A DNA stretch of 64,000 bases from an uncultured Bacillota bacterium (GCA_958448635.1 CAUDEQ010000002.1:5009-69008), one strand, 5' to 3'. Positions 2,456 through 23,491 are shown, counted from the first letter of the stretch. Notes: generated by a model from the sequence alone, not told the origin. Made by a program: numbers and translations.

Positions 2456-2459
2456 TTAT

Positions 2460-3641
2460 ATGCGTAGGGAAGAACTCATAGAAAGGATAAAAAGCATAGA
2501 GCCTGTCGATAAAGCCGCGATGGAAAAGGCAGCTGAAAGACAGGAATCCCTGGCAAAGCCTCCCGGAAGCCTGGGGAAGCTGGAGGATATCTCCATTAGA
2601 ATGGCGGGGATCACCGGCAAGGTGAAAAACAGCATAGCCGGAGGCTGTGTGGCTGTATTCTGTGCCGATAACGGAGTGGCAGAGGAAAACGTCAGCTCTG
2701 CGCCACAGAGCGTGACCATGGCGCAGACGGTGAATTTCACCAGAAGACTGACGGGAGTAGGCGCACTGTCGGAAAGCTTCGGAAGTCAGCTGCTGATAGT
2801 GGATATGGGGATAAAAAACGAGATTCCCGAAGGGCTGTACGATACGATCCCGCTGAGGGACACACATAAGATAGTAGACAGAAGGATAAGACCCGGTACA
2901 GATAATATGGCAAAAGGAGACGCCATGAGCGTGGAGGAAGCCTTGAGATGCATCGAGGTGGGCATTGAAATGGCTGAGGCCGTCAGTGAAGGCGTATATG
3001 ACATCATGGGGATCGGAGAGATGGGCATAGGCAACACAACCACCAGCGCCGCCGTTCTGTCTGCCGTCACAGGTCTTGACAGCGGCAGCACATGCGGCAG
3101 GGGCGGTGGAATAAAGGAAGACAGCTTCAGGCGCAAGCGTATTATCGTCGACAAAGTATCGGAGCCTTATCGCAGCAGGGGAGGGGCTGTTGAGATCCTC
3201 AAGGCAAGGCAGGACGAGAAGTCATATCATGAGGCTGCATGCGATATGATGCTGGAAATCCTTGCCCGCATGGGCGGCTTCGACATCTGCGCCATGACGG
3301 GAGCCTTTATAGGGGCGGCCTGCAGGAGACTGCCTGTGGTGATAGACGGATATATTTCGGTGGTGGCGGCTCTGACGGCATATGTGATGGCCCCTGCCTG
3401 CAGAGATTACATGTTCGCCTCACATATTTCAATGGAGAGGGGATATCTGCCGGCTGTGGAGCTTTTGGGGCTGGAGCCGTTTCTGGCGCTGGATATGAGG
3501 CTGGGAGAGGGCAGTGGATGCCCTGTGGCCTTTGAGATAATAAGGGGAGCGTGCGATGTGATGAGGAACATGGCAACCTTCGAGGAGGCCGAGATAAACG
3601 ACGATTATCTCATGGAGATAAGAGGAGGCGACTGCTTCTGA
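2460..3641 (+). CDS. cobT: nicotinate-nucleotide--dimethylbenzimidazole phosphoribosyltransferase
   Basis: Full-length similarity to CobT (GIGEMGIGNTT motif region). Start moved to the ATG at 2460, which has a GGAAGAGGG ribosome-binding site 6 nt upstream (track ORF begins 2442). Confidence 0.9.
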   Translation: MRREELIERIKSIEPVDKAAMEKAAERQESLAKPPGSLGKLEDISIRMAGITGKVKNSIAGGCVAVFCADNGVAEENVSSAPQSVTMAQTVNFTRRLTGVGALSESFGSQLLIVDMGIKNEIPEGLYDTIPLRDTHKIVDRRIRPGTDNMAKGDAMSVEEALRCIEVGIEMAEAVSEGVYDIMGIGEMGIGNTTTSAAVLSAVTGLDSGSTCGRGGGIKEDSFRRKRIIVDKVSEPYRSRGGAVEILKARQDEKSYHEAACDMMLEILARMGGFDICAMTGAFIGAACRRLPVVIDGYISVVAALTAYVMAPACRDYMFASHISMERGYLPAVELLGLEPFLALDMRLGEGSGCPVAFEIIRGACDVMRNMATFEEAEINDDYLMEIRGGDCF

Positions 3642-5265: not shown

Positions 5266-5802
5266 ATGAACATATTCATCAGCGGAGGCTGCAAAAACGG
5301 CAAATCATATTACGCGCAGCGCAGGGCAAAGGACATGGCTTCGGAGAAGGGAGTGCCGCTTTACTATGTGGCGACGATGATACCTCGAGATGAGGAGGAC
5401 AACAGAAGGATCAGAAGGCATATCTCGGAAAGGGCAGGCTGGGGCTTTGAAACCATAGAGCAGGGAAAAGCGCTGACTGAGATTTTGCATGACGACAGCA
5501 TAGATAAAAACGGAGTTTTTCTTCTGGATAGCATAACGGCGCTTCTCGACAATGAAATGTTCGGAGGAAGCGGAGAAATGGACGAAACGGCGGCGGACAG
5601 GGTAAAAAGAGATGTGCTGGAATTTGCCGAGGCTACAGGGAATACCGTGTTCGTGTCGGACTACATATATTCAGACGCAGAGCTGTACGATGAATCCGTC
5701 GAGAGCTACAGACGCGGGCTGGCAGCCGTGGACAGAGCATTGGCGGAGATATGTGATCAGGTCATGGAAATAGGATTCGGTATTGAGGAGAGATGGAAAT
5801 GA
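5266..5802 (+). CDS. cobU: bifunctional adenosylcobinamide kinase / adenosylcobinamide-phosphate guanylyltransferase
   Basis: 178 aa. Walker A motif GGCKNGKS, the guanylylation His region (RRHISERAGW) and the conserved C-terminus. GGAGG ribosome-binding site. Confidence 0.85.
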   Translation: MNIFISGGCKNGKSYYAQRRAKDMASEKGVPLYYVATMIPRDEEDNRRIRRHISERAGWGFETIEQGKALTEILHDDSIDKNGVFLLDSITALLDNEMFGGSGEMDETAADRVKRDVLEFAEATGNTVFVSDYIYSDAELYDESVESYRRGLAAVDRALAEICDQVMEIGFGIEERWK

Positions 5803-6674
5803 AGTATGCAAGAGGGCTTTTAATGGCCATCGGAAATTTCAGTGCCCTGCCATGCCCTTATCATAAGTGGCATGACAACAGCAGAAAGGCCATGCTGAGC
5901 ATGCTGCCTGTGGTGGGACTGATACTGGCAGGGATAATCATCGCAGCATGGTGGCTGCTGGGCATGACGGAGCTCTCGCCTCTTTTCAGAGGGGTAATCC
6001 TCACCGTACTGTATTTCTGCTGCTGCGGATTCATACATCTTGACGGCTTCATGGACTGCTGTGATGCCATACTGTCGCGCAGGCCGGAGCTCCGGGAAAG
6101 ACAGAGGATACTGAAATCGCCTGATGTGGGAGCCTTTGCAGTCATCAGCATGGTTTTGATGATGATGGTGTTTGTCGCTTCCATGGCAGAGCTGGCAGCT
6201 CGCTTCACATTCCGGGAGGCAGGCATACTGCTGATCATAATGTTCATTTCGAGAGCCATAGCCGCAGATCATGTGATGAGAAAGCCGACGATGGCTACAA
6301 GCCAGTATGCGGATATGAATGGGGAGCCCGCCGGGGGAATGCATGACAGCATGAAAAAAGACAACCCCCGTACTGCTGAAAACCATGTGCTGGCATTCAT
6401 GACATACCTGACGGTTATGGTGGTGATAAGTATATGTAGATATTGCTGCAGTGCAGATATGATGAACGGGGGAGAATCAGGAAGCCTTCTGCTCTTCTAT
6501 GTGTTCTGTGCAGGGACGGTATGTGTTCAGATTGCAGTCATATATCTGATAAGCCTCCATGCCAGAAAGCAGCTGGGAGGCATGAGCGGAGATATAGCGG
6601 GATATATGATAGTAATTTCGGAGACGGCAGCAGTTTTCACAGCGGCTGTAATATCTTCATTTACAAATCTGTAG
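5793..6674 (+). CDS. cobS: adenosylcobinamide-GDP ribazoletransferase (cobalamin synthase)
   Basis: Polytopic membrane protein with the CobS signature HLDGFMDCCDA. Overlaps the cobU stop, suggesting translational coupling. Confidence 0.85.
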   Translation: MEMKYARGLLMAIGNFSALPCPYHKWHDNSRKAMLSMLPVVGLILAGIIIAAWWLLGMTELSPLFRGVILTVLYFCCCGFIHLDGFMDCCDAILSRRPELRERQRILKSPDVGAFAVISMVLMMMVFVASMAELAARFTFREAGILLIIMFISRAIAADHVMRKPTMATSQYADMNGEPAGGMHDSMKKDNPRTAENHVLAFMTYLTVMVVISICRYCCSADMMNGGESGSLLLFYVFCAGTVCVQIAVIYLISLHARKQLGGMSGDIAGYMIVISETAAVFTAAVISSFTNL

Positions 6675-8936: not shown

Positions 8937-10373
8937 ATGCGAATTTTTGACACTAAGGTACAGGAAATCAAGTATATGGTTCTTATGGAGCTGGCCTGGC
9001 AGACATGGAGGGAAAACGACGCCTTCATGGTATTCAACGAGATCGCCGACGAAATCGTTACGAAGGATGCGCCGCCTATGAGCTGCTGCATATACAAGGA
9101 CAGAGCCATCGTTGCCGAGAGGATAAGGATAGCTCTTGGAGGAAAGAAGGACGATCCCAACATAATACAGGTCATAGATATAGCCTGCGATGAATGTCCG
9201 GTGGCAGGCCATGTGGTAACTGACCTCTGCAGAGGCTGCGTTGCACACAGGTGCTCCGATGCCTGCAAGCTGGGAGCGATAACCTTCGATGACGACCAGA
9301 TAGCCCATATAGATAAGGAAAAATGCGTGGAATGCGGAAAATGCGCAGAGCTGTGTCCGTACAGCGCCATAACTAACTTCAAGAGACCTTGTGAAAGGGC
9401 ATGCAAGGTGGATGCGATACATATGGCCAAGGACGGAGTCGCAATGATAGACAGCGAAAAGTGCATATCCTGCGGAGCGTGCGTGTACCAGTGCCCATTT
9501 GGAGCTACGCTGGATGTTTCCAGCATAACCGACGTTATAAAGACCATCATGGCCAGCGAAGACAACCGGAAGTTTAAGGTTTATGCAGTGGTGGCGCCTG
9601 CCATCGCCAGCCAGTTCACATATGCCAAGACAGGTCAGATCATAACGGCCATAAAGGAGGTGGGCTTCTACGGAGTCGAGGAAGCGGCTCTGGGAGCAGA
9701 CTTCGTCGCCTACAATGAGGCAGAGGAGCTGCAGGAGAGAGAGCTGATGACATCGTCCTGCTGTCCTGCCTTCGTCGAATACATCAAGACCAAGTTCCCT
9801 GAGATGGAAAAATACATTTCGGAAAACCTGTCGCCTATGGCTGAAACAGGAAAGCTGCTGAAAAAGTACGATCCGGACTGCAAGGTGGTATTTATAGGAC
9901 CTTGCACTGCCAAAAAGGCGGAGATAAGAGATCCGAAGGTGGGGCAGTACATTGACTACGTTCTGACCTTCGAGGAGCTGCAGGCCCTCATAGACAGCAA
10001 GGACATAGAGGTGGAGCAGCTGCCTGAAACAGATCTCAGCACAGCATCGCCATTTGGAAGAAACTTCGCCAGATCGGGAGGAGTAGCCGAGGCGGTAACC
10101 GAGGCTGTAAAAGAGAGACTGGGAGACGCCGTCAAGGTGGACCCTGTGGTATGCGATGGTATCGAGGAATGCAGAGTGGCGCTTTTGAAAGCGTCCAAGG
10201 GCGTGCTTAAAAACAATTTCATAGAAGGAATGGTATGCGACGGAGGCTGTATAGGCGGTGCGGCGTGTCTCACCCATGTTGACAAGGCCAACAGGAAGAA
10301 GATAGAGGATTACGGCATCAGCGCCAAGATAAAGGAAATACAGTCGGCAGTCGAAAATGCCAATAACAGATAG
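8937..10373 (+). CDS. monomeric [FeFe]-hydrogenase-family protein (two 4Fe-4S ferredoxin motifs plus H-cluster domain with variant motifs)
   Basis: Two CxxCxxCxxxCP ferredoxin motifs. H-cluster-like motifs L1 TSSCCPAF, L2 IGPCTAKKAE and L3 EGMVCDGGCIGGAAC, with all ligand Cys present but the flanking residues non-canonical. AGGAG ribosome-binding site. Confidence 0.8.
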   Translation: MRIFDTKVQEIKYMVLMELAWQTWRENDAFMVFNEIADEIVTKDAPPMSCCIYKDRAIVAERIRIALGGKKDDPNIIQVIDIACDECPVAGHVVTDLCRGCVAHRCSDACKLGAITFDDDQIAHIDKEKCVECGKCAELCPYSAITNFKRPCERACKVDAIHMAKDGVAMIDSEKCISCGACVYQCPFGATLDVSSITDVIKTIMASEDNRKFKVYAVVAPAIASQFTYAKTGQIITAIKEVGFYGVEEAALGADFVAYNEAEELQERELMTSSCCPAFVEYIKTKFPEMEKYISENLSPMAETGKLLKKYDPDCKVVFIGPCTAKKAEIRDPKVGQYIDYVLTFEELQALIDSKDIEVEQLPETDLSTASPFGRNFARSGGVAEAVTEAVKERLGDAVKVDPVVCDGIEECRVALLKASKGVLKNNFIEGMVCDGGCIGGAACLTHVDKANRKKIEDYGISAKIKEIQSAVENANNR

Positions 10374-10501
10374 AAGTGAGCTTTGCGCAGAGGGAATGGA
10401 TCGCAGCGGCAAGTGCGGCGATCCGGACATGAAACGGCTGACTGAGATAGCCGCAAACAGAATACGATCCCGGAAGACGCACATCAGTATCATGGAAAGG
10501 A

Positions 10502-10550
10502 AAAGAGGATCGAAGAATCTTGGGAATCGGAGATCCTCTTTGATTTTGTA
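10502..10550 (+). terminator. intrinsic terminator after hydrogenase-family gene
   Basis: 10-bp stem AAAGAGGATC/GATCCTCTTT followed by a T-rich stretch (GATTTTGT). Confidence 0.65.
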
Positions 10551-10622
10551 AGGGCAGGATACTTTCGTGTCATATGAACATTTTCTCGGTGTCAGAGGAG
10601 GGGAAAAGATGAGCAGGGGCAA

Positions 10623-10667
10623 AATACCGAACATTATAAAAGCACCACGATTCATATGTTCGTAAAA
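10623..10667 (+). promoter_or_regulatory. PurR-type PurBox pair (operator) upstream of purL operon
   Basis: AATACCGAACATT matches the Bacillus PurBox consensus AWWWCCGAACWWT exactly. An inverted second box (ATATGTTCGTAAAA, one mismatch) lies 18 bp away. About 125 nt upstream of the purL start. Confidence 0.6.
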
Positions 10668-10790
10668 AGTCAATTTTTAAAGGTTTAATGGCGATAATTG
10701 TTGCGAATTAACGGCAAAAGTGCTAACTTTATAAGGAGATAATAACGTATTCGCTGCCGCGTTAACGAAAATCAGAAAGGACTATGGTTT

Positions 10791-13700
10791 ATGGTAAGAA
10801 GAATTTACGTTGAAAAGAAAAAAGGCTTTGATGTGGAGGCGACATCGCTTTTCAATGATGTCAGGGAGAATCTCCATCTCAATGATCTGACATCAGTAAG
10901 AATCCTGAATCGTTATGATATAGACGGAATAGATGATGCTACCTATGAAGCAGCTAAATTTACGGTATTCGCAGAACCTGCCGTGGACATCGTATACGAA
11001 GAAACGATGCCAGAGGACGTGTGTTCTGCTATTTATTTTGCAGTGGAATATCTGCCGGGACAGTATGATCAGAGAGCAGACTCGGCGGCACAGTGCATAC
11101 AGCTTATGAACTCCTCCGCCCATGCGGCAGTAAAATTCGCAAGGGTGATCGTTCTTCAGGGATCGTTGACGGAAGCAGAGGTGGATTCGGTGAGAAACTA
11201 CTGTGTAAATCCTGTGGATTCACAGCTGGCGGCTCATGAGAAGCCGGCGGATCTGGAAATGGAAACGACAATACCTGAAGATGTTGCCATCATAGACGGC
11301 TTCAGAGCCATGGATGAGCAGAGGCTGGAGGAATACAGAAAGGCCATGGGCTTCGCCATGAGCCACGATGATATCGTGATGATACAGCAATACTTCAGAG
11401 AAGACGAGGACAGGGAGCCGACTCTTACGGAGCTGAAGGTGGTGGATACATACTGGTCGGATCACTGCAGACATACGACATTCAATACTACTTTAAGCAA
11501 TATCACCTTTGAGGACAGCCGCTATGGAGCGATGGTTAAGAAAGCCTTCGACAGATATATGGAAATGAGGGCGGACGTATACGGTGACAGGGAGAAGAAC
11601 GTATGTCTGATGGATATGGCGTGCATAGGTGCAAAATACCTGAAAAAGCACGGCAAGGTGGAGGATCTTGATGAATCCGAGGAAATCAACGCATGCAGCA
11701 TAAAGGTGAAGGCAAAGATCGACGGTGATGAAGAGGATTGGTTGGTGATGTTTAAAAACGAGACTCACAATCATCCGACGGAGATAGAGCCTTTCGGCGG
11801 AGCTGCAACATGTCTGGGAGGAGCAATAAGAGACCCTCTCTCAGGCAGAGTATACGTATATCAGGCCATGAGAGTGACAGGCGCTGCGGATCCGAGAAAG
11901 CCGATAGAGGAGACTCTGGCAGGCAAACTGCCTCAGCGAAAGATAACGAGGGAGGCTGCGGCCGGATACAGCTCCTACGGAAATCAGATAGGACTTGCGA
12001 CAGGACTTGTGGATGAGGTATATCACGAAAACTACGTTGCCAAGAGAATGGAAATCGGCGCAGTGGTGGGAGCTGCTCCTGCAGATCACGTTATAAGAAA
12101 GGTTCCGGAAAAGGGCGATGTGATAATACTTCTCGGCGGCAGAACGGGAAGAGACGGCTGCGGAGGAGCGACAGGCTCATCCAAGGAGCATACGGAGGAA
12201 TCCATCCTTCAGTGCGGAGCAGAGGTGCAGAAGGGAAATCCTCCTGTGGAGAGAAACATACAGCGTATGTTCAGAAGAAAAGAAGCGGCTACGCTGATAA
12301 AAAGATGCAACGATTTCGGTGCCGGAGGCGTTTCGGTAGCGATAGGGGAGCTGGCTGACGGCCTTGAAATCTATCTGGATAAGGTCCCTAAGAAGTACGA
12401 GGGACTTGACGGAACGGAGCTGGCAATTTCCGAGTCGCAGGAGAGAATGGCGGTTGTTGTTGCAGCGGACAGAGCCGAAGAATTCATGAGATACGCAGAT
12501 GAAGAAAATCTGGAGGCCACTCAGGTGGCGGAGGTCACAGATACCAACAGAGTCAGGATGTACTGGAGAGAAAAGTGCATTCTGGATCTTTCAAGAGATT
12601 TTCTCAATACCAACGGAGCACAGCAGTTTGCCGATGTCCACGTTGCAGCACGTGAGAAGGACGGCGATCAATGGCTCGATGAGCTGCTGAAGGAGACAAA
12701 GACGAAGGAAGAGCTGCTGACGGATCTCAACTGCTGCAGCAAGAAGGGGCTGATAGAGCGTTTCGACAGCACCATAGGAGCTGCAACGGTACTCATGCCT
12801 CTGGGAGGAAAGTATCAGCTGTCGCCTGCAGCAGGTATGGCAGCAAAGCTCCCTGTAGTGGACGGCGAGACCGACACGGCCACCATCATGGCATACGGCT
12901 TCGATCCGGAGCTGGCGGTAAAGAGCCCTTACCACGGAGCATTGTATGCGGTGGTGGATTCCGTAGCCAAGATAGCGGCTATGGGTGGAGATTACAGGAC
13001 GATAAGGCTCACCTTCCAGGAATACTTCGAAAAGTTGGGTGAGGATGCATCGAGATGGGGCAAGCCTGCAGCGGCCCTGCTGGGAGCGCTGACGGTTCAG
13101 AAGGAGCTGGAGATTCCGTCCATCGGAGGAAAGGACAGCATGTCCGGAACCTTCATGGACATAGACGTTCCTCCTACGCTGGCATCATTTGCCATCACCA
13201 CCGTAGATGCGGATGATGTGGTATCGACGGAATTCAAGAAAGCAGACAGCAGGCTTGTGGTTCTCACCACACCTGTAGATAAAAACGGAGTCATAGATTT
13301 TGAGAGCTTCAGAAAGAACATGCTGAAGCTGAGAGAGCTGGCTGTTACCAAGAAGCTTCTTGCCGCCAATACCATCGGCAGGGGCGGCCTTTACATGACG
13401 CTGGTGAAGATGGCTGTAGGCAACGGCATCGGAGCAGATGTAAAGGCAGAGGGAGACATTCTGTCACCTATGTACGGCTCTGTACTGGTGGAAATTCCTG
13501 CCGATAAGGATGTGGACAGGATAATGGAAGGCTCGATATATACCGAAATCGGAGCAACCACGAAGGATGGAAGACTGACGATAAACGGCGAGGCAGAGGA
13601 GGTGGCCTCCTTAACGGTGAGGTGGCAGACTCCGGTGGAGAGCGTATTCCCTGTAAGAACTGCGGAATACAGAAACAAGGTGGATAAGACTCCTGTTGAA

Positions 13701-14549
13701 AGGACACTGTACAAGGAGAGAAATGCAGCAGGCCCTAAGATAGGGACAGCAAGACCGAAGGTTGTGATACCTGTATTCCCGGGAACAAACTGCGAGATGG
13801 ATTCGGCGAGAGCCTTCAGAAAAGCAGGCGCCGAGGCCGATATCCATATCATCAGGAATCTGACGGCAGCGCAGTTGGAGGAGTCCATCGCAGAGCTGGA
13901 AAAGAAGATAAGAGAAAGTCAGATGATAATGATACCGGGAGGCTTTTCCGGAGGAGACGAGCCTGACGGGTCTGCTAAATTCATCACGGCCGTATTCAGG
14001 AATCCTGCCATAAGCGATGCCGTATCGGATCTGCTGAAGAACAGAGACGGACTGATGCTGGGAATATGCAACGGCTTCCAGGCATTGATAAAGCTGGGAC
14101 TTGTCCCTTACGGAGAGATAAGGGATATGAAGGAGGACAGCCCTACGCTGACATACAACAGGATCAACAGACATGCTTCATGCCTCGTGAGAACGGGAGT
14201 AACATCTGTCAAGTCGCCATGGCTTGCAGGAGTTGAGGCAGGCGATGTGTTCACCATACCGGTATCCCACGGCGAGGGAAGATTCATCGCAGATCATCAG
14301 CTGGCAGAGCAGCTGATGAAAAACGGCCAGGTCGCCACACAGTATGTTGACTTCGAGGGGAACCCGTCCATGGATATAGCCTTCAATCCCAACGGATCGG
14401 TGATGGCCATAGAGGGAATAACATCGCCGGACGGAAGGATATTGGGGAAGATGGGACATTCGGAAAGAATCGGCGGAAATCTCTACAAGAATGTTGCCGG
14501 CGAAAAGGATCAGAAGATTTTCGAATCAGGCGTAAAGTATTTCAGATAA
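10791..14549 (+). CDS. purL: phosphoribosylformylglycinamidine synthase, single-chain large form
   Basis: 1252 aa with N-terminal, AIR-synthase-like and C-terminal glutaminase (GATase1: ICNGFQ) domains. Confidence 0.95.
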   Translation: MVRRIYVEKKKGFDVEATSLFNDVRENLHLNDLTSVRILNRYDIDGIDDATYEAAKFTVFAEPAVDIVYEETMPEDVCSAIYFAVEYLPGQYDQRADSAAQCIQLMNSSAHAAVKFARVIVLQGSLTEAEVDSVRNYCVNPVDSQLAAHEKPADLEMETTIPEDVAIIDGFRAMDEQRLEEYRKAMGFAMSHDDIVMIQQYFREDEDREPTLTELKVVDTYWSDHCRHTTFNTTLSNITFEDSRYGAMVKKAFDRYMEMRADVYGDREKNVCLMDMACIGAKYLKKHGKVEDLDESEEINACSIKVKAKIDGDEEDWLVMFKNETHNHPTEIEPFGGAATCLGGAIRDPLSGRVYVYQAMRVTGAADPRKPIEETLAGKLPQRKITREAAAGYSSYGNQIGLATGLVDEVYHENYVAKRMEIGAVVGAAPADHVIRKVPEKGDVIILLGGRTGRDGCGGATGSSKEHTEESILQCGAEVQKGNPPVERNIQRMFRRKEAATLIKRCNDFGAGGVSVAIGELADGLEIYLDKVPKKYEGLDGTELAISESQERMAVVVAADRAEEFMRYADEENLEATQVAEVTDTNRVRMYWREKCILDLSRDFLNTNGAQQFADVHVAAREKDGDQWLDELLKETKTKEELLTDLNCCSKKGLIERFDSTIGAATVLMPLGGKYQLSPAAGMAAKLPVVDGETDTATIMAYGFDPELAVKSPYHGALYAVVDSVAKIAAMGGDYRTIRLTFQEYFEKLGEDASRWGKPAAALLGALTVQKELEIPSIGGKDSMSGTFMDIDVPPTLASFAITTVDADDVVSTEFKKADSRLVVLTTPVDKNGVIDFESFRKNMLKLRELAVTKKLLAANTIGRGGLYMTLVKMAVGNGIGADVKAEGDILSPMYGSVLVEIPADKDVDRIMEGSIYTEIGATTKDGRLTINGEAEEVASLTVRWQTPVESVFPVRTAEYRNKVDKTPVERTLYKERNAAGPKIGTARPKVVIPVFPGTNCEMDSARAFRKAGAEADIHIIRNLTAAQLEESIAELEKKIRESQMIMIPGGFSGGDEPDGSAKFITAVFRNPAISDAVSDLLKNRDGLMLGICNGFQALIKLGLVPYGEIRDMKEDSPTLTYNRINRHASCLVRTGVTSVKSPWLAGVEAGDVFTIPVSHGEGRFIADHQLAEQLMKNGQVATQYVDFEGNPSMDIAFNPNGSVMAIEGITSPDGRILGKMGHSERIGGNLYKNVAGEKDQKIFESGVKYFR

Positions 14550-14589
14550 TGAGCAAAAGAAGTATTTCAATTCAGAAAGGAAAAAGAAT

Positions 14590-15069
14590 ATGAAAGTAGC
14601 TATAATCATGGGAAGCAAATCGGATTATCCCGTAGTGCAGAAGGCAGAGAAAATGCTGGCAGATTTCGGAGTTGAGTATGAGACGAGGATAATATCGGCA
14701 CACAGAACGCCCAGACAGGCAGAGGAATTTGCCGCCAATGCGGAAGCCAACGGCTTCGGATGCATCATAGCGGCGGCAGGAAAGGCTGCTCATCTGGCAG
14801 GCGTGCTGGCAGCGACCACACCGCTTCCCGTAATAGGTCTTCCTATGAAATCCAGCACCCTTGACGGACTGGATTCGCTGCTGTCGGTGGTTCAGATGCC
14901 AAAGGGAGTGCCTGTTGCAACGGTGGCTATAGACGGTGCGGAAAACGCTGCGATTTTGGCTGTTCAGATACTCAGCACTGCCGATGCAGTCATGAGACAG
15001 GCCATAAAGGACTTTAAGAAGAAGCAGGAAGAGGATATAGTTGCGTTGGACGCTGAATTCAACAGCTGA
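14590..15069 (+). CDS. purE: 5-(carboxyamino)imidazole ribonucleotide mutase
   Basis: 159 aa, classic PurE (MGSKSD...AHRTP...GAAHLAG). Confidence 0.95.
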   Translation: MKVAIIMGSKSDYPVVQKAEKMLADFGVEYETRIISAHRTPRQAEEFAANAEANGFGCIIAAAGKAAHLAGVLAATTPLPVIGLPMKSSTLDGLDSLLSVVQMPKGVPVATVAIDGAENAAILAVQILSTADAVMRQAIKDFKKKQEEDIVALDAEFNS

Positions 15070-15219
15070 TGAGATAAACGGCAGACTATGTACAGCCTGC
15101 AATAAAGAAGCGGAAGCCGGCTATGCGGATCGTTTTTACCGCATCAGCCCTTCCCGAAGCGGTGAAAGGTATATTTGATATTTAATGCATTGTAAAACTC
15201 ATGAAACAGGAGAAAAAAA

Positions 15220-15927
15220 ATGAAAAAACTCGAACAGCTTTATGAAGGAAAAGCAAAAAAGGTATTCAAAACAGATGATCCCAAGTGCTATATCGTAGAC
15301 TACAAGGACGATGCGACGGCATTCAACGGAGAGAAAAAGGGTCAGATCGCAGGCAAGGGCGTTGTCAACAACACCATGGCAAACATCATCTTCCGGCTGC
15401 TGGAGGAAAAGGGAGTTCCCACTCATTTCGTGGAGCAGATCAGCGACAGGGAAACAGTTGTAAAGGCTGTGAAGATACTGCCTCTTGAGGTAATAATGAG
15501 AAACGTGTCGGCAGGCTCCTTTGCCAAGAGATACGGAGTAGAGGAAGGAATAACCTTTGAAAAGCCGACCTTCGAGCTTTCATATAAGAATGATGATCTG
15601 GGCGATCCTCTCATGTGTGAATCCCATGCACTGGCTCTGGGTCTGGTGACTGAGACTCAGCTGGAGGAGATAAGGAGCTATGCCGCAACCGTAAATGACG
15701 TTCTCAAGGAGTTCTTCCTGGAGAGAGGTCTCAAGCTCATAGACTTCAAGATCGAATTCGGACTTTACGACGGACAGGTGATTCTGGCAGATGAGATTTC
15801 CCCTGACACATGCAGGCTGTGGGATGTGAAGACCAATGAAAAGATGGATAAGGACAGATTCAGGAGAGATCTGGGCAATATAGAAGAGACATATGCGGAA
15901 GTTCTCAGAAGAGTAAAGAACAGCTGA
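15220..15927 (+). CDS. purC: phosphoribosylaminoimidazole-succinocarboxamide synthase
   Basis: 235 aa, SAICAR synthetase ([10 protein letters not shown]...). Confidence 0.95.
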
Positions 15928-17006
15928 TGAGTAAACGGCGGATAGGAGAAGATATGGAAGATAAGAAACTCACATACAAGGACGCCGGAGTCGATACCAA
16001 GGAAGGCGAAAGAGCAGTATCGCTGATGAAGGCGCATGTCAAGAGAACCTTCAATGAGAATGTCCTTACGGGGCTCGGCAGCTTCGGAAGCCTCTTTGCA
16101 CTGGATCTCAAGGACATTAAAGAGCCTGTACTGGTATCGGGAACAGACGGCGTAGGAACAAAACTTAAGATAGCCTTTCTTATGGACAGGCATGATACGG
16201 TGGGCATAGACTGCGTTGCCATGTGCGTTAACGACGTTCTCTGTCAGGGCGCAAAGCCGCTGTTTTTCCTGGATTATATAGCTACGGGAAAGGTAAAGGC
16301 GGAGAAGATCGCTGATATCGTAAAGGGAATAGCAGAGGGCTGCAGCCAGTCGGGAAGCGCCCTTGTCGGCGGTGAAACTGCGGAAATGCCTGATTTCTAT
16401 TCCGACGGCGAATACGACATGGCAGGCTTTTCCGTCGGCATAGCGGACAAGAGCAGGATAATCACAGGCGCCGATATCAAGGTGGGCGATAAGATAGTCG
16501 GAATCGCATCCACGGGAATACACAGCAACGGTTATTCGCTGGTAAGAAAGGTGTTCTTCGATAAGATGGACATGAAGGTTACAGATTATGTTGAGGAGCT
16601 GGGAGAAACTCTGGGAGAGGCGCTGCTCAGACCTACGAAAATATACGCCAACGCCTGCGGCGCAGTGCTGCCTGATTTCCATGTCAACGGGATAGTTCAT
16701 ATCACCGGAGGCGGATTTTACGAAAACATTCCGAGGATACTTCCGGAGGGTACTGCCGTGTCCATCGATGCAGGAGCGTGGGATGCGCCTCCGATATTCC
16801 CGTACATAGCAAGCTGCGGCAATATCGACAGAGAGGAAATGTTCTCCACATACAATATGGGCATAGGCATGATGATGATAGTTGACGCCGACGACGCAGA
16901 GGCTGTAAAGGACGCCCTGCTGAAGGCGGGAGAAAAGGCATATATAATCGGCGACGTGGTGGAGGATCAGGGAAGCAGAGTGAAGATAAGCTATCCTGAG
17001 ATATAG
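15927..17006 (+). CDS. purM: phosphoribosylformylglycinamidine cyclo-ligase (AIR synthetase)
   Basis: 359 aa, PurM N- and C-terminal domains (DGVGTK..., GGETAEMP). Confidence 0.95.
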   Translation: MSKRRIGEDMEDKKLTYKDAGVDTKEGERAVSLMKAHVKRTFNENVLTGLGSFGSLFALDLKDIKEPVLVSGTDGVGTKLKIAFLMDRHDTVGIDCVAMCVNDVLCQGAKPLFFLDYIATGKVKAEKIADIVKGIAEGCSQSGSALVGGETAEMPDFYSDGEYDMAGFSVGIADKSRIITGADIKVGDKIVGIASTGIHSNGYSLVRKVFFDKMDMKVTDYVEELGETLGEALLRPTKIYANACGAVLPDFHVNGIVHITGGGFYENIPRILPEGTAVSIDAGAWDAPPIFPYIASCGNIDREEMFSTYNMGIGMMMIVDADDAEAVKDALLKAGEKAYIIGDVVEDQGSRVKISYPEI

Positions 17007-17028
17007 GCTGCGAGCAAAAGAGGAAAAC

Positions 17029-17622
17029 ATGATGAGCAACAAGATAAAGACTGCCGTGCTGGTGTCGGGAGGCGGGACAAACCTTCAGGCGCTGATAGAC
17101 AAGCAGAGAGACGGCAGTATACCTAAGGCGGAGATCACCATGGTAATAGCCAGCAGAGAGGACGCATTTGCTCTGGAAAGGGCTGCAAGGGCAGGAATAC
17201 AGACTGCAGTTGCGCCGGAGCAGCATCAGGTTCTGGACGCGTTGAGAGCGTCAGGTGCGCAGATCGTTGTGCTGGCAGGATACATGAGGGTGCTGTCTCC
17301 GGAGATAATAGATGAATACAGAGACAGGATAATAAACATACACCCATCCCTCATACCGAAATACTGCGGTAAGGGATTTTACGGAAAGAGAGTCCACAAG
17401 GCAGTGCTGGAGGGAGGCGAAAAGGAAAGCGGAGCCACCGTACACTATGTGGACGAGGGTGTTGACACCGGTAAGATAATATTACAGAAGAAAGTACCTG
17501 TGCTGGAAGGCGATACTGCGGATATCCTTGCGGCCAGAGTACTTGAAATAGAACATGAGATCCTGGCGGAGGGGCTGAACATAGTGGCCGACAGGATAGA
17601 AAAGGACGGAGGTAAAATATAA
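17029..17622 (+). CDS. purN: phosphoribosylglycinamide formyltransferase
   Basis: 197 aa. SGGGTNLQA loop and the HPSL(IP) catalytic region. Confidence 0.9.
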   Translation: MMSNKIKTAVLVSGGGTNLQALIDKQRDGSIPKAEITMVIASREDAFALERAARAGIQTAVAPEQHQVLDALRASGAQIVVLAGYMRVLSPEIIDEYRDRIINIHPSLIPKYCGKGFYGKRVHKAVLEGGEKESGATVHYVDEGVDTGKIILQKKVPVLEGDTADILAARVLEIEHEILAEGLNIVADRIEKDGGKI

Positions 17623-19088
17623 TGGGCGGAGTAATAGGCTTTGTATCAAAGCAGGACTGTGTGATGGACCTGTTTTTCGGTACTGACTATCATTCACATC
17701 TGGGAACTAAGAGAGGCGGAATGTGCGTGCTTCAGGAGGATGGCTTCAACAGATCCATTCACAATATAGAAAATTCTCCCTTCAGAAGCAAGTTTGAAAA
17801 GGATATCGAGGAAATGCAGGGGAATATGGGTATAGGAGCCATAAGCGACAGCGACCCGCAGCCTCTGACGGTACGCAGCAGACAGGGCGAATACGCCATA
17901 ACCACTGTAGGCCGTATAAACAACAAGGACGAGATCGTAAACGAGCTGCTTAAGGACAGACCAAGCCAGTTCATGTCCATGAGCGGCGGCGGTATAAACA
18001 ATACCGAGCTGGTGGCTGCCATCGTATCCACCGGAAGAGATATAGTCGACGGCATAAGAAGAGCCCAGGATAAGATTGACGGCTCCGTAACGATGCTGGT
18101 GCTGACCAAGGAAGGTCTTTACGCCGCCAGAGACAAATACGGAAGAACTCCACTCATTATAGGCAAAAAGGACGGCGCATACTGTGCCGCATCCGAATCC
18201 TTTGCATTCATAAACGTAGGATATAAGTACAGCAGAGAGCTGGGACCCGCAGAGATCGCATTTCTCACTCCCGACGGGGAGGAAACCGTGGGAGAACCGC
18301 AGGAGGGCATGAGGATATGCTCCTTCCTCTGGACGTATTTCGGATATACGACTTCAATATACGAAGGAAAGAACGTGGAGCTGATGAGAAACAGAAACGG
18401 AGGAATTCTGGCACAGAAGGACGAGGATCTGGACGTGGACTACGTTGCGGGAGTTCCGGACAGCGGCACTGCCCATGCGTTGGGCTATGCCAATCAGTCG
18501 CGGGTGCCATATGCACGTCCGCTGATCAAATATACGCCGACATGGCCAAGGAGCTTCATGCCGCAGAACCAGAAGGCCAGAAACCTCATCGCCAAGATGA
18601 AGCTGGTGCCTGTTTTCCAGATCATAAAGGACAAGAAGTTCGTGCTTATAGACGACTCCATCGTAAGAGGTACGCAGCTTTCGGAAACAGTAAGCTATCT
18701 GATAGAAAACGGCGCCAAGGATATACATGTAAGATCTGCATGCCCGCCGATCATGTACGGATGTAAATTCCTGAACTTTTCACGATCGGTAAGCGATATG
18801 GAGCTCATCACCAGAAGATGCATCAGAGAGCTGGAGGGCATGGATCAGCCGGGAGATGCAGCGGCAAACCCTGCAGGCTTCGACAGCGAGATGCAGTCTG
18901 ATATCTCTGCCGAGGTGCTGGCGGAGTATGCAGACCCTAAGACGGAAAGACATAAGAACATGGTTGAGCTTATAAGAAAGAAGCTGAATTTCGACAGTCT
19001 GAAATTCCAGGAGCTGGATGACACCATCGAGGCCATAGGAATAGACAGATGCAAGCTCTGTACATACTGTTGGGACGGAAAGGAGTAA
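17622..19088 (+). CDS. purF: amidophosphoribosyltransferase homolog with substituted glutaminase active-site residues
   Basis: 488 aa. PRTase domain and C-terminal 4Fe-4S Cys ligands (SACPP, YGCKF, CKLCTYC) typical of Bacillus-type PurF. The N-terminus is MGGVIGF where the Ntn nucleophile motif MCG(I/V) is expected. The oxyanion-hole HNGN aligns to TVGR. Start overlaps the purN stop (TAATG). Confidence 0.85.
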   Translation: MGGVIGFVSKQDCVMDLFFGTDYHSHLGTKRGGMCVLQEDGFNRSIHNIENSPFRSKFEKDIEEMQGNMGIGAISDSDPQPLTVRSRQGEYAITTVGRINNKDEIVNELLKDRPSQFMSMSGGGINNTELVAAIVSTGRDIVDGIRRAQDKIDGSVTMLVLTKEGLYAARDKYGRTPLIIGKKDGAYCAASESFAFINVGYKYSRELGPAEIAFLTPDGEETVGEPQEGMRICSFLWTYFGYTTSIYEGKNVELMRNRNGGILAQKDEDLDVDYVAGVPDSGTAHALGYANQSRVPYARPLIKYTPTWPRSFMPQNQKARNLIAKMKLVPVFQIIKDKKFVLIDDSIVRGTQLSETVSYLIENGAKDIHVRSACPPIMYGCKFLNFSRSVSDMELITRRCIRELEGMDQPGDAAANPAGFDSEMQSDISAEVLAEYADPKTERHKNMVELIRKKLNFDSLKFQELDDTIEAIGIDRCKLCTYCWDGKE

Positions 19089-19094
19089 GGTAAT

Positions 19095-19808
19095 ATGAAA
19101 AAATCACTGCTGACGGATCTTCTGAAGGGAAACTCCTATCCGGGGAGAGGAATCGTTACAGCCCGTTCAGAAGACGGTAAAAGCGCTGTGGCAGCGTATT
19201 TCATTATGGGAAGAAGCGTCAACAGCCGCAACAGGATATTCGTGGAGGAGGGCGAGGGAATCAGGACACAGGCTCATGATCCTGCTTTGCTCAGTGATCC
19301 AAGCCTGATAATTTATTCTCCTGTAAAGGTGCTGGGCAACAAGACCATCATCACCAACGGAGACCAGACCGACACCATCTATGAAGGCATGGACAAGCAG
19401 CAGACCTTCGAGCAGTCTCTGAGAATCAGGGAGTTCGAGCCGGACGGTCCCAACTATACTCCGAGAATATCAGGAATAATACATATAGAAAAGGGCAGCT
19501 GCAATTATGCCATGTCAATACTGAAGAGCAATAACGGCGACCCTGAAGGCTGCAGCAGATATACTTTTGCGTATGAGAATCCTGCAGCGGGAGAGGGCAG
19601 ATACATACACACCTACATGCATGACGGCGAGCCGCTGCCGAGCTTTGAAGGCGAGCCTGAGTGGGTGGAGATCTCCGGAGATATCGATGAGTTCACCGAT
19701 GCGGTATGGAGCAGCCTGAACGAAGACAACAAGGTATCGCTGTTTGTCAGATATATAGACATAGAGACAGGCAGCTATGAGACGAGAATAGTCAATAAGA
19801 ACAAATAG
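19095..19808 (+). CDS. purO: archaeal-type IMP cyclohydrolase
   Basis: 237 aa with the PurO family signature (YPGRGIV...AAYFIMGRSVNSRNR). Confidence 0.75.
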   Translation: MKKSLLTDLLKGNSYPGRGIVTARSEDGKSAVAAYFIMGRSVNSRNRIFVEEGEGIRTQAHDPALLSDPSLIIYSPVKVLGNKTIITNGDQTDTIYEGMDKQQTFEQSLRIREFEPDGPNYTPRISGIIHIEKGSCNYAMSILKSNNGDPEGCSRYTFAYENPAAGEGRYIHTYMHDGEPLPSFEGEPEWVEISGDIDEFTDAVWSSLNEDNKVSLFVRYIDIETGSYETRIVNKNK

Positions 19809-19937
19809 GAAAGCCGCACTGCGGGCTTTGCGGAAAGCGTTACGGATGCGACGCAGGAGTGCGCTTTGCAGAGAAAGTCCGGACGTATCATAAGTGTGCG
19901 CTTTGCATGAGAGATAAGCAATACAGAAGGAGATAAG

Positions 19938-21113
19938 ATGAAAGAACTGGAACTCAAATACGGATGCAATCCCAATCAGAAGCCATCCAGAATATTTGTC
20001 GAAGAGGGAGAGCTTCCCATCGAGGTACTCAACGGAAAGCCGGGATATATCAATTTTATGGACGCCTTCAACGGCTGGCAGCTGGTTAAGGAGCTGAAGG
20101 AGGCAACAGGACTGCCTGCAGCCACATCATTCAAGCACGTTTCGCCTGCCGGAGCAGCTGTGGGGCTGCCTCTCACGGAGGTGGAGAAAAAGATATACTG
20201 GGTGGACGACAGCATAGAGCTTTCGCCGCTGGCATGCGCCTATGCCAGAGCAAGAGGCGCCGACAGGATGTCATCCTTCGGTGATTTCATATCGTTGTCG
20301 GATGTATGCGATACGGCGACTGCCATGCTGATAAAGCCTGAGGTGTCCGACGGCGTGATCGCTCCCGGTTATGAGCCTGAGGCTCTTGAGATACTTAAGA
20401 CAAAGAAAAAGGGAAATTACAATGTGATAAAGATAGATCCCGACTATGTCCCTGAAAAGCAGGAGCGCAAGCAGGTGTTTGGGATTACCTTCGAACAGGG
20501 AAGAAACGATATGCCGATAGATGAAAAATTTCTGGGCAGCATCGTGACGGAAAACAAGGAAATAAGCAGTGAGGCCAAGAGGGATTTACTGATAGCCCTC
20601 ATCACCCTTAAATATACCCAGTCCAATTCCGTATGCTACGCCAAGGGCGGTCAGGCCATCGGAATAGGAGCAGGACAGCAGTCACGTATACACTGCACCA
20701 GGCTGGCAGGGCAGAAGGCAGACAACTGGCTGCTGAGACAGTGTCCTAAGGTGCTGGAACTGCCTTTCAAAGACGGTGTGGGAAGACCTGACAGGGATAA
20801 TGCCATAGATGTGTATATGAGCGACGACTACGAGGATGTCATAGGTGAAGGTCAGTGGCAGCGCTTTTTCACCAGACAGCCGGAGCCTCTTACCAGAGAG
20901 GAAAAAAGGGAATGGCTGTCAAAGATGGACGATGTAGCGTTGGGCTCGGATGCGTTCTTCCCGTTCAGCGACAATATCGACAGAGCGTACAGGAGCGGAG
21001 TTAAATACATAGCGCAGCCGGGTGGCTCGGTGAGAGACGATATCGTCATCAAGGCATGCGATGAATACGGCATGGTGATGTATTTCTCAGGCATGAGACT
21101 GTTCCATCATTAA
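19938..21113 (+). CDS. purH: phosphoribosylaminoimidazolecarboxamide formyltransferase (AICARFT domain only)
   Basis: 391 aa. Matches the C-terminal AICAR transformylase half of bifunctional PurH. The N-terminal MGS-like IMP cyclohydrolase domain is absent. Confidence 0.85.
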   Translation: MKELELKYGCNPNQKPSRIFVEEGELPIEVLNGKPGYINFMDAFNGWQLVKELKEATGLPAATSFKHVSPAGAAVGLPLTEVEKKIYWVDDSIELSPLACAYARARGADRMSSFGDFISLSDVCDTATAMLIKPEVSDGVIAPGYEPEALEILKTKKKGNYNVIKIDPDYVPEKQERKQVFGITFEQGRNDMPIDEKFLGSIVTENKEISSEAKRDLLIALITLKYTQSNSVCYAKGGQAIGIGAGQQSRIHCTRLAGQKADNWLLRQCPKVLELPFKDGVGRPDRDNAIDVYMSDDYEDVIGEGQWQRFFTRQPEPLTREEKREWLSKMDDVALGSDAFFPFSDNIDRAYRSGVKYIAQPGGSVRDDIVIKACDEYGMVMYFSGMRLFHH

Positions 21114-21124
21114 GGAGGTTTATA

Positions 21125-22441
21125 ATGAAGGTACTGGTAGTTGGAAGCGGCGGAAGAGAACATGCAATATGCTGGAAGCTGAAGCAGAGCCCTGCTCTTG
21201 AGGAGCTTTACTGTGCTCCCGGCAATGCGGGAATAGCTGCCGATGCAACGTGTGTGGATATAAGTGCCGAGGACGTGGAGGGGATCTGCGGCTGGGCATC
21301 TGAAAACAAAATAGACCTGGCTGTGATCGGCCCTGAGGTGCCGCTGGCAATGGGCATCGTGGACGCCCTGGAAGCAAAGGGCATAAGGACGTTCGGACCC
21401 AACATGAAATGCTCTCGACTTGAGGCAAGCAAATCCTTTACCAAGGACTTTCTCGACAGGCATGACATTCCGACGGCGGGCTACAGAGAGTTCACCGATA
21501 AGGCGGAACTGCTTGAGAACGTGGGCCTTTACGGATATCCCATGGTGCTGAAGGCTGACGGTCTGGCGGCAGGCAAGGGAGTAGTCATTGCAGAAAACGA
21601 AAAGGATGCCGTGGCTGCCATCGAGGAAATGATGGGAGAGAGGATCTTCGGAGCTGCGGCAGATAAGATAGTGGTGGAGGAATTCCTGACGGGAGTAGAG
21701 GCTTCGATGCTCTGCTTCGTAGATGAGAATACCATAGTTCCCATGGAATCGGCCCAGGATTACAAGAGGATCTTTGACGGAGACAAGGGACCGAACACAG
21801 GAGGCATGGGTACATACTCGCCAAGCCTGCTCTTTACGCCTGAGCTGGAGGAGCAGATAAGAGAGAGAATACTTGAGCCGACGCTGAAAGGCTTTCAGGA
21901 GGACGGTCTGGATTTCAAGGGGGTGCTGTTCATCGGGCTCATGCTGTCGGAGGACGGGCCGAAGGTAATTGAATTCAACAACAGATTCGGAGACCCTGAG
22001 ACTCAGTCGGTGCTGATGCGCCTCGACAGCGATCTTCTGGAGATTTTCATGGCAGTCACCGAAAACAGGCTGTCGGATATTGAAATCAGATGGAAGGACG
22101 ATAGAGCAGTATGCGTCGTACTGGCTTCAGGCGGATATCCCGGCAGCTATGAAAAGAACAAGCTGATAAAGGGGCTTGACGCTGTGGACGATGATGTGGT
22201 GGTGTTCCATGCGGGAACCAGGTTCGCACCGATGCCGGAGGGAAGCAAATGCGCTTCCTGCGAGGACGACTGCGACATCAAGACAGGAGCCGTAGTAACA
22301 TCCGGAGGCCGCGTTCTGGGCGTGACGGCTGTCGGTAAAACCCACGAGGAGGCAAGGAAAAAGGCATATGAAAATGCCGGACGTATCAGCTTCGAGGGAA
22401 TGCAGTACAGAAACGACATAGGAATGATAAACAGACATTGA
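21125..22441 (+). CDS. purD: phosphoribosylamine--glycine ligase
   Basis: 438 aa. GAR synthetase with ATP-grasp (MKVLVVGSGGREHA...). Confidence 0.95.
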   Translation: MKVLVVGSGGREHAICWKLKQSPALEELYCAPGNAGIAADATCVDISAEDVEGICGWASENKIDLAVIGPEVPLAMGIVDALEAKGIRTFGPNMKCSRLEASKSFTKDFLDRHDIPTAGYREFTDKAELLENVGLYGYPMVLKADGLAAGKGVVIAENEKDAVAAIEEMMGERIFGAAADKIVVEEFLTGVEASMLCFVDENTIVPMESAQDYKRIFDGDKGPNTGGMGTYSPSLLFTPELEEQIRERILEPTLKGFQEDGLDFKGVLFIGLMLSEDGPKVIEFNNRFGDPETQSVLMRLDSDLLEIFMAVTENRLSDIEIRWKDDRAVCVVLASGGYPGSYEKNKLIKGLDAVDDDVVVFHAGTRFAPMPEGSKCASCEDDCDIKTGAVVTSGGRVLGVTAVGKTHEEARKKAYENAGRISFEGMQYRNDIGMINRH

Positions 22442-22480
22442 GACGATCCCGTATCGTGGGATGGAAAAGAGTGAAGACAT

Positions 22481-22522
22481 GAGTGCAAAGGAAGCCTTGT
22501 TTCCGTCCTGCACTCTTTTTCT
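22481..22522 (+). terminator. intrinsic terminator after purD (end of pur operon)
   Basis: GAGTGCA...TGCACTC stem followed by TTTTT. Confidence 0.7.
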
Positions 22523-22767
22523 TATGCGGGAGTATAGTATGTGGGATGGCTTCTGAATTTCAGCAAAGCCTGCCGTTTAGAAGCTGTAGGCTTTGCTTCG
22601 AGGCGGCGCTTTTGCTCATGCATCTCCGTTAAATTGAACAGCGACATGTAATTGGTATTTGAATAGTAAACGTGGTTTATGATAAAATATAAAAATAAAG
22701 CAGCGGTGTTGTTGGTGCAGATATAGTGACAGCGGTTTTTTCAATATGGGTAATATCCAATGCGTGG

Positions 22768-22800
22768 CATTTCCCGTATTTCAACAAAGTCTCCCGATTA
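22768..22800 (+). promoter_or_regulatory. conserved leader element, copy A (5' UTR of cytidylate-kinase-like gene)
   Basis: GCATTTCCCGTATTTCAACAAAGTCTCCCG. About 28 of 31 positions are identical to copy B at 36087-36117. Confidence 0.45.
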
Positions 22801-22852
22801 AATTGGATCGGCGGGATCGACTTCGTTACGGCGGCACTGCGATGAGGAGGCA

Positions 22853-23491
22853 ATGATTATGAATGAGAAAAAATGTATAGTTACCATAAGCAGAGAGTTT
22901 GGCAGCGGCGGAAGGCTGATCGGCAAGAGACTCGCTGAGAAAATGGGGGTTAATTATTACGATAAGAAGCTTCTGGACAGGATTGCCGAGGAATCGGGCC
23001 TTTGCAGGGAGATGATGGAGGATGCTGAGAAGAAGGCAAAGAACAGCTTCCTTTACAGTCTGGCGTCTGCGCTGGGTACAGGTGAAGCGGGTCCCGAAAG
23101 CCTTTCCCTCAATGAGAGATTCTTTCTGGCTCAGTTTGACACCATCAGAAAGATTGCGGAGGAGGAGTCATGCGTTATCGTAGGGCGATGCGCCGATTAT
23201 ATTTTAAGGGGAATGCCTGAGGCGACCAACGTATTCATCTATGCAGAGGAGGCTGACAAGATCAAGAGAGCCGTTGAGGAGTACGGTGTGCCTGAGGATT
23301 CCGTAAAGAAGATGATGAAGGATACGGATAAGGCCAGAGCCAACTATTACGCATACCATACGGGAAGAAAATGGGGAGAGCATGTCAACTATCATCTGTC
23401 AATAGACAGCGGATATCTGGAGATAGATGATATAGTGGATCTCATCATAAAGTACACCGAAGTCAAGATCAACAAGCTGGAATCCATCTAG
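22853..23491 (+). CDS. cytidylate kinase-like family protein (Cytidylate_kin2)
   Basis: 212 aa. P-loop-like SREFGSGG, a family common in Clostridia and of unknown function. Confidence 0.65.
   Translation: MIMNEKKCIVTISREFGSGGRLIGKRLAEKMGVNYYDKKLLDRIAEESGLCREMMEDAEKKAKNSFLYSLASALGTGEAGPESLSLNERFFLAQFDTIRKIAEEESCVIVGRCADYILRGMPEATNVFIYAEEADKIKRAVEEYGVPEDSVKKMMKDTDKARANYYAYHTGRKWGEHVNYHLSIDSGYLEIDDIVDLIIKYTEVKINKLESI

Follow-up and report, generated by a model that had tools for sequence, protein, structure and literature searches.

A 64,000-nucleotide stretch of DNA from an uncultured Bacillota bacterium (GCA_958448635.1 CAUDEQ010000002.1:5009-69008; hereafter the window, in which all positions are counted from the first letter) carries a purine biosynthesis (pur) operon whose only PurF-type gene, here designated purFx, encodes a protein that has no catalytic cysteine, and we lean towards the view, from sequence and by analogy with mutant enzymes, that it acts as a glutamine-independent, ammonia-dependent 5-phosphoribosylamine (PRA) synthase. 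PurF carries out the committed step of purine synthesis, at which the pathway is regulated, and is the standard example of a glutamine amidotransferase that channels ammonia. The sequence-only reading that first singled out this gene took it for a pathway PurF that had lost key glutaminase residues. Our comparisons instead place purFx in an ancient and widespread family of Cys-less PurF paralogs, and the gene that was lost from the operon is the canonical purF.

The purFx gene (17622..19088, on the + strand, as are all of the pur genes and purFx segments given below) encodes 488 residues with the N-terminus MGGVIGF and is translationally coupled to purN: its ATG shares one A with the purN TAA (TAATG), and a GGAGG sequence lies 9 nt upstream of the ATG. 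Read in frame, the sequence leading into the start gives ...R * N I M G G, and since this places an in-frame stop three codons before the ATG, no longer start that would include a cysteine is possible, as had been proposed from the overlap itself. Codon 2, at the position of the Cys1 nucleophile, is GGC (Gly; 17625..17627), and the MGG start is shared by the nearest database homologs without exception (120/120 at 80% identity or more; where the record carries a name, this is Anaerovoracaceae or Zhenpiania hominis). The identical protein is recorded from tens of assembled contigs. That the glycine stems from a T-to-G error in codon 2, or that the gene is a decaying pseudogene, has next to no probability: a sequencing error or mis-called start is ruled out by the uniform MGG of the homologs, the identical protein on many contigs and the in-frame stop, error and decay alike are ruled out by five separate active-site changes that include an 8-residue deletion, and decay is further ruled out by full-length open reading frames (ORFs) and a ratio of nonsynonymous to synonymous divergence (dN/dS) of ~0.05.

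Residue correspondences were taken from HMMER alignments to the PurF of Bacillus subtilis (1ao0/1gph) and to Arabidopsis ASE2 (6lbp), together with a MAFFT alignment; the canonical residues Arg26, Arg73/Tyr74, Asn101-Gly102 and Asp127 are given in Escherichia coli numbering. Every glutamine-site residue is replaced in the N-terminal nucleophile (Ntn)-hydrolase-like domain (residues ~1-228; 17622..18305), most of which is modelled with a predicted local distance difference test (pLDDT) value above 90. Canonical Cys1 corresponds to Gly2, which leaves no N-terminal nucleophile cysteine, and canonical QHRGQ, the site of Arg26, becomes SHLGT, with Leu27 in place of the arginine within a motif characteristic of the family, DYHSHLG (residues 22-28; 17685..17705). 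The canonical glutamine loop, GHVRYATAGGGGYENVQP, is represented by GAISDSDPQP within the shortened loop GIGAISDSDPQPL (residues 70-82; 17829..17867, from HMMER against 1ao0 and the family alignment), where a deletion of 8 residues has removed the equivalents of Arg73/Tyr74. AITTVGRINN aligns with ALAHNGNLVN of the B. subtilis enzyme, so that the oxyanion Asn becomes Val96, and Gly97 is retained (TTVGRINN, residues 94-101, opposite canonical AHNGNLVN; 17901..17924). Finally, INNTEL (residues 125-130; 17994..18011) lies opposite canonical SSDTEV, with the SDTE that contains Asp127 replaced by NNTE (Asn127), a position that varies across the purFx family. The alignments thus uphold the Cys1-to-Gly and oxyanion Asn-to-Val replacements noted in the sequence-only reading and add those at Arg26, in the glutamine loop and at Asp127. 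The absence of a nucleophile, of the oxyanion Asn and of glutamine-binding residues leads to the prediction that purFx cannot hydrolyse glutamine by the Ntn mechanism; that all of the glutamine-site residues are missing supports the earlier expectation on this point.

The loss of glutaminase function appears to be specific to the first step of the pathway. PurL of the same operon (10791-14549), which is of the large type with a fused glutaminase, served as an internal control: its glutaminase domain (13728..14549; GICNGFQ ... GHSER) retains the complete Cys/His/Glu triad when aligned to Salmonella PurL (6jt9/1t3t). The intact triad implies that the organism has not given up glutamine as a general nitrogen donor.

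Judged by its motifs, purFx keeps everything that is known to be needed for binding phosphoribosyl pyrophosphate (PRPP) and for the PurF fold. The type I phosphoribosyltransferase (PRTase) domain (18306..18821) contains GVPDSG (18450-18467), a flexible loop, KYTPTWPRSFMPQNQKARNLIAKMKL (18528-18605), in which the KYTP..RSF..Q..R..KMKL motifs are kept, and the PRPP loop DDSIVRGTQ (residues 344-352; 18651-18677). The last residue of this loop, the second Thr of canonical DDSIVRGTT, is Gln throughout the purFx family, and DDSIVRGTQ is found in 75 of the 79 PurF-family ORFs of the GTDB loci, the remaining 4 being canonical PurFs. Four cysteines (spanning 18318..19070) align with Cys236, Cys382, Cys437 and Cys440 of B. 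subtilis PurF and are candidate 4Fe-4S ligands: C233 (18318-18320), C381 (18762-18764) and C483 (19068-19070) are invariant in the family alignment and C480 (19059-19061) is nearly so. The C-terminal CxxCWxG motif of the family, a predicted Fe-S site, reads CTYCWDG in the window protein. Motifs and aligned cysteines therefore agree with the earlier statement that the PRTase domain and the 4Fe-4S ligands are intact.

The predicted fold is that of PurF along its whole length. The best PDB sequence matches are 6lbp and 1ao0 (E ~1e-42), and an AlphaFold2 model built with 18 family members has a pLDDT of 89 and a predicted template modelling (pTM) score of 0.89. Foldseek with this model ranked 1ao0 first (template modelling score, TM, 0.80/0.86), and the model superposes over both domains on 1ao0, 6lbp and 1ecb, the PurF structures of B. 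subtilis, Arabidopsis and E. coli, with TM ~0.77-0.86. Neither the PDB sequence search nor Foldseek returned a solved structure closer to purFx than the known PurFs. The protein scores 184.1 bits against TIGR01134, below the curated equivalog cut-off of 350, and despite this NCBI and JGI name it plainly 'amidophosphoribosyltransferase', which confirms that such genes are easily mis-annotated. A lineage-specific insertion at residues 407-432 (18840..18917), acidic, of low complexity and predicted to be disordered (pLDDT below 50 at residues 410-425), is absent from relatives, whose proteins have 472-474 residues compared with 488 here.

An exhaustive search of 1.84 billion cluster representatives with HMMER recovered many full-length relatives of purFx down to ~35% identity. 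Most of these share an M-[G/S/T/A]-G-x-x-G start, a DYHSHLG-type motif and a short glutamine loop; their residues at the former oxyanion and Asp127 sites vary, and their Fe-S cysteines and DDSIVRGTQ loop are conserved. The window protein has the features that delimit the family, namely M-[G/S/T/A]-G-x-x-[G/A/S], DYHSHLG and a loop of the GIGxISDxDxQP type (GIGAISDSDPQPL), all of which recur in an alignment of 18 diverse members and in the purFx ORFs of the GTDB loci; across the wider family G, S, T or A occupies position 2. In the 18-member alignment Tyr23 is invariant and Asp22 and His26 are nearly so. A neighbour-joining tree gathers the canonical enzymes (CG / HRG / RY / HNG / D) tightly in a single clade; the Cys-less sequences make up a deep and diverse assemblage. 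A third PurF-like group from the HMMER search (P0203, P0242, P0267) falls between these two sets of sequences in the same tree; its members have kept Cys1 and Arg26 but have neither the Arg/Tyr residues of the glutamine loop nor the His-Asn-Gly motif of the oxyanion hole.

When GTDB species genomes were scanned with the PRPP-loop signature of the family, [DE]DS[IL]VRG[TN]Q, at least 600 matches were obtained, all of which were confirmed as relatives of purFx. The best 80 of these matches fall in Lachnospiraceae (Roseburia, Agathobacter, Mediterraneibacter and others), Ruminococcus, Christensenella, Oscillospiraceae, Erysipelotrichaceae and gut Treponema, and Muribaculaceae, including the cultured Muribaculum intestinale, carry purFx too. 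The state regarded as uncommon in the sequence-only reading is therefore not rare in sequence space. Full-text searches of the literature gave no description of a Cys-less PurF family, the only related material being a remark on an archaeal paralog and data on E. coli Cys1 mutants (see below), and the family is apparently uncharacterised.

The relationship between purFx and the canonical enzyme is revealed by the operons of relatives. In close relatives, whose purFx proteins are 84-90% identical to that of the window, the gene order is purL-purE-purC-purF-purM-purN-purFx-purH-purD, and the purF located between purC and purM is fully canonical, with a propeptide followed by Cys-Gly, QHRGQ, GHVRYSTAG, AHNGNLVN and DSE. 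Both genes are present in the operons of L007, L087/L088, L089/L090, L093/L094 (the purFx of which is that of the named species Zhenpiania hominis) and the more distant L096/L097; L095 has canonical purF only; and the window, L008, L009 and L091/L092 have purFx only. The gene order of the window is repeated in independent assemblies of the species (L004-L006) and in the related species L091/L092, which is very frequently assembled. At the purC/purM junction of the window, which corresponds to the canonical purF site of relatives, the purC stop overlaps the purM start (15925..15929); the two genes abut at 15927 and no remnant of canonical purF lies between them. Nor was a second purF found anywhere in the 64-kb window by tblastn, whether with purFx or with the canonical PurF of a relative as the query, so that the claim that purFx is the only PurF-type gene of the operon holds for the whole window. 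These gene orders indicate that in the window lineage canonical purF has gone from the operon and the paralog has stayed. The pairwise identities of purFx form a star-like pattern, and lineages with both genes and with purFx only are interleaved at 84-90% identity, L008 for example being nearest to L089; this pattern indicates that canonical purF disappeared from the operon recently and probably more than once. L008 has purFx only and still carries the bifunctional purH of the operons that have both genes.

The occurrence of operons with both genes, with canonical purF only and with purFx only suggests that the two enzymes do the same job. In the scheme that we propose, the pur operon of recent ancestors would have contained canonical glutamine-dependent purF and purFx together, and the canonical copy would then have been dropped, leaving purFx as the sole step-1 enzyme of the operon. 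At the conserved PRTase site the enzyme would convert PRPP and NH3 to PRA and pyrophosphate, with free ammonia standing in for the ammonia otherwise derived from glutamine. The former glutaminase domain would probably serve as a lid and channel over the PRTase site, or in oligomerisation or allosteric control, and, with the glutamine loop shortened, the former glutamine pocket may lie open to solvent and so admit ammonia.

Three lines of argument lead us to favour ammonia-dependent PRA synthesis. The three operon states form the pattern expected of isofunctional enzymes. Operons with purFx only would otherwise be without step 1, yet their other genes are kept, including purD, whose product consumes PRA. 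The third argument is a precedent in E. coli: according to the summary of Mei & Zalkin (1989) given in PMC3261824, replacement of Cys1 in PurF abolishes glutamine-dependent activity, and ammonia use is retained. An ammonia-dependent enzyme would also make physiological sense in the gut and rumen habitats in which the family is concentrated; these are rich in ammonia, and direct use of NH3 spares the ATP of glutamine synthesis.

Several observations weigh against ammonia-dependent PRA synthesis. Our search of the literature found no assay of any member of the purFx family. The search for a second purF covered 64 kb of a genome of ~2.6 Mb. Most purFx copies in Lachnospiraceae have no pur gene within 10 kb, and co-transcription of purF with purFx in relatives is as compatible with cooperation or distinct roles as with redundancy. 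Strong constraint on the N-terminal domain, together with the new invariant residues Tyr23, Phe54 and Phe58, hints at more than a passive scaffold.

An alternative, which we judge to be unlikely but deserving of real weight, is that a canonical purF resides elsewhere in the genome and that purFx is not the PRA synthase of the pathway but an accessory paralog, for example a partner that regulates PurF or has no catalytic role, or a PRTase for another nucleophile or substrate in nucleotide metabolism. The coexistence of the two genes in several close relatives and in Lachnospiraceae, the isolated position of most Lachnospiraceae copies (four of which are followed by carB), the limited view of the genome and the invariable Gln in place of the second Thr of the PRPP loop are all in keeping with an accessory role. 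However, purFx-only operons occur in at least three lineages (window/L091, L008 and L009) with the other pur genes intact, and the PRPP-binding and flexible-loop motifs required for catalysis are all conserved. In addition, the canonical PurF of L007 used as a query gave no match tied to the window species, which is a weak test as the records describe single sequences rather than clusters; several abundant canonical PurF clusters belong to other species, with operons that contain both genes or the canonical gene only. A metagenome scan with canonical PurF likewise returned no match in the 77-99% identity band, a weak and uninformative test.

Synteny beyond the close relatives also links purFx to purine synthesis in several lineages. 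In Anaerovoracaceae it lies inside the full operon; the arrangement purC-purF-purB-purFx recurs in Lachnospiraceae, purC-purFx occurs in L052 and purL-purFx in Muribaculaceae. Adenylosuccinate lyase (purB) directly precedes purFx in five loci (L022, L024, L051, L056 and L078), and carB, encoding the large subunit of carbamoyl-phosphate synthase, directly follows it in four Lachnospiraceae loci (L033, L059, L069 and L084), both neighbours having been assigned by reading the sequences rather than by hidden Markov models. In the Muribaculaceae loci L001-L003, genes for the large and small subunits of glutamate synthase lie ~8 kb downstream of purFx on the opposite strand, which may be coincidental.

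These neighbourhoods also bear on the proposal, raised in the sequence-only reading, that purFx is one half of a two-component amidotransferase and receives its ammonia from a separate glutaminase subunit encoded elsewhere. Such an arrangement is logically possible since split amidotransferases exist, PurQ/PurL and PabA/PabB being examples. However, clustering of 1172 ORFs from the 80 GTDB loci detected no conserved glutaminase-type neighbour of purFx, the recurrent neighbours being purB, purC, purL and carB, and the only glutaminase domain of the window operon is fused to PurL. With no candidate partner among the conserved neighbours, we regard a two-component enzyme as highly improbable.

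The N-terminal domain is not decaying. Comparison with five relatives gave dN values of 0.06-0.09 for the N-terminal domain and 0.10-0.12 for the C-terminal half, and dN/dS is ~0.04-0.06 in two comparisons; dS is saturated in three of the five, so that dN and these two ratios are the usable measures. Purifying selection acts on the domain no less strongly than on the PRTase half. This constraint could mean that the domain now has a new function in ligand binding or catalysis, perhaps the use of a nitrogen donor other than glutamine or metabolite sensing, and still feeds or gates the PRTase site. The lower dN, the clustering at the former glutamine pocket of the invariant or nearly invariant residues Asp22, Tyr23 and His26 (of DYHSHLG) and Ser75 (of the short loop), and the presence of Ser or Thr at position 2 in many family members would be consistent with such a role; both Ser and Thr can act as nucleophiles in other Ntn hydrolases. 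On the other hand, no N-terminal nucleophile is conserved, since the window protein and much of the family have Gly at position 2 and some members have Ala; the equivalents of the oxyanion Asn and Asp127 vary freely across the family, and the conserved neighbours suggest no candidate donor. We therefore consider a new role of this kind to be improbable. Ammonia-dependent PRA synthesis has a bolder form, in which the constrained domain with its DYHSHLG motif would be a dedicated site for the capture or gating of ammonia, for an alternative nitrogen donor or for sensing, and purFx would represent a separate way, adapted to ammonia, of starting purine synthesis in gut anaerobes of several phyla, which in lineages like that of the window would fully replace the glutamine enzyme; this we put forward only as a doubtful, speculative extension.

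The operon itself, as annotated with Pfam and NCBIfam, extends from purL to purD (10791..22441). Downstream of purL lie purE (14590-15069), purC (15220-15927), purM (15927-17006) and purN (17029-17622), and purFx is followed by genes for a PurO-like inosine monophosphate (IMP) cyclohydrolase (19095-19808) and for a PurH (19938-21113) that consists of the 5-aminoimidazole-4-carboxamide ribonucleotide formyltransferase (AICARFT) domain only, and then by purD (21125-22441). The earlier description of an otherwise complete pur operon needs a small correction, as purB and purK were not found within the 64-kb window. The last two steps of purine synthesis are thus divided between two proteins: the cyclohydrolase scores 232 bits on Pfam PF07826, compared with 47 bits against the archaeal PurO equivalog, for which the cut-off is 150, and the AICARFT-only PurH scores 726 bits on NF005492. 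The close relatives with purFx identities of 84-90% have a single bifunctional PurH of 511 residues, and the L091 species has the split arrangement.

A gap of 417 nt (10374-10790) precedes purL. Rfam at gathering thresholds gave no match in the whole 64 kb, so that no purine or ZTP riboswitch was detected before the operon, and matches to sigma-70-like promoters and intrinsic terminators in the operon region (10300-22900) were at chance level. On its upstream side the operon adjoins a gene resembling [FeFe]-hydrogenase, with ferredoxin domains (8937-10373), and further upstream are genes for the cobalamin lower ligand and nucleotide loop, encoding a CobT-type DBI_PRT protein (2442-3641), CobU (5266-5802) and CobS (5793-6674).

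If purFx is indeed an ammonia-dependent enzyme, many gut and rumen anaerobes would begin purine synthesis straight from ammonia, and models of nitrogen flow in gut microbes would need to route the nitrogen of step 1 from ammonia, with no ATP spent on glutamine. Glutamine analogues or compounds targeted to PurF might then fail to act on such organisms. The name shared with true glutamine-dependent PurF affects pathway reconstruction, and the family offers a natural experiment on roles of the Ntn domain other than glutamine hydrolysis.

Amongst known systems, purFx is closest to the Fe-S type of PurF found in B. subtilis (EC 2.4.2.14; 1ao0/1gph; ASE2, 6lbp) and is not of the E. coli type. The two share the combined Ntn and type I PRTase fold (TM 0.80-0.86), the four 4Fe-4S cysteines, GVPDSG and both the PRPP and the flexible loop, and are encoded in pur operons, but are only 26-27% identical, and purFx has neither Cys1 nor a propeptide and ends its PRPP loop with Gln rather than Thr. 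The making of one product from either NH3 or glutamine is familiar from AsnA and AsnB, and from NadE with or without a glutaminase domain, where an abundance of ammonia favours the ammonia-using form, which avoids the ATP cost of making glutamine. The ammonia enzymes of the AsnA/NadE kind differ, however, in that they are unrelated or have no glutaminase domain, whereas purFx has a full-length, conserved but disabled one. Loss of the Cys1 glutaminase with retention of the N-domain fold has a precedent in the β-lactam and carbapenam synthetases (1m1z/1mbz), class II (Ntn) descendants derived from AsnB, and β-lactam synthetase was a distant Foldseek match to the N-terminal domain of purFx. These synthetases have a different synthetase domain and have changed their reaction, whereas purFx is proposed to keep the acceptor reaction of PurF.

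The nearest functional parallel is provided by the Cys1 mutants of E. coli PurF, which, as summarised in PMC3261824 and as proposed here for purFx, make no use of glutamine and form PRA from ammonia. These are laboratory point mutants, whereas purFx belongs to a natural and ancient lineage whose entire glutamine pocket has been remodelled. A natural PurF paralog with Ser substituted for the active-site Cys, Mlab_0150, coexists with canonical purF in the archaeon Methanocorpusculum labreanum, and no function is known for it (Brown et al., 2011; PMC3261824). It is described there as having arisen by recent duplication of the purF of that organism, with no report of replacement of the canonical gene at the level of the operon, in contrast to the deep and widespread family to which purFx is assigned. 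We therefore regard the purFx family as a widely distributed and putatively glutamine-independent branch of PurF, which extends a known enzyme family rather than representing a new kind of system.

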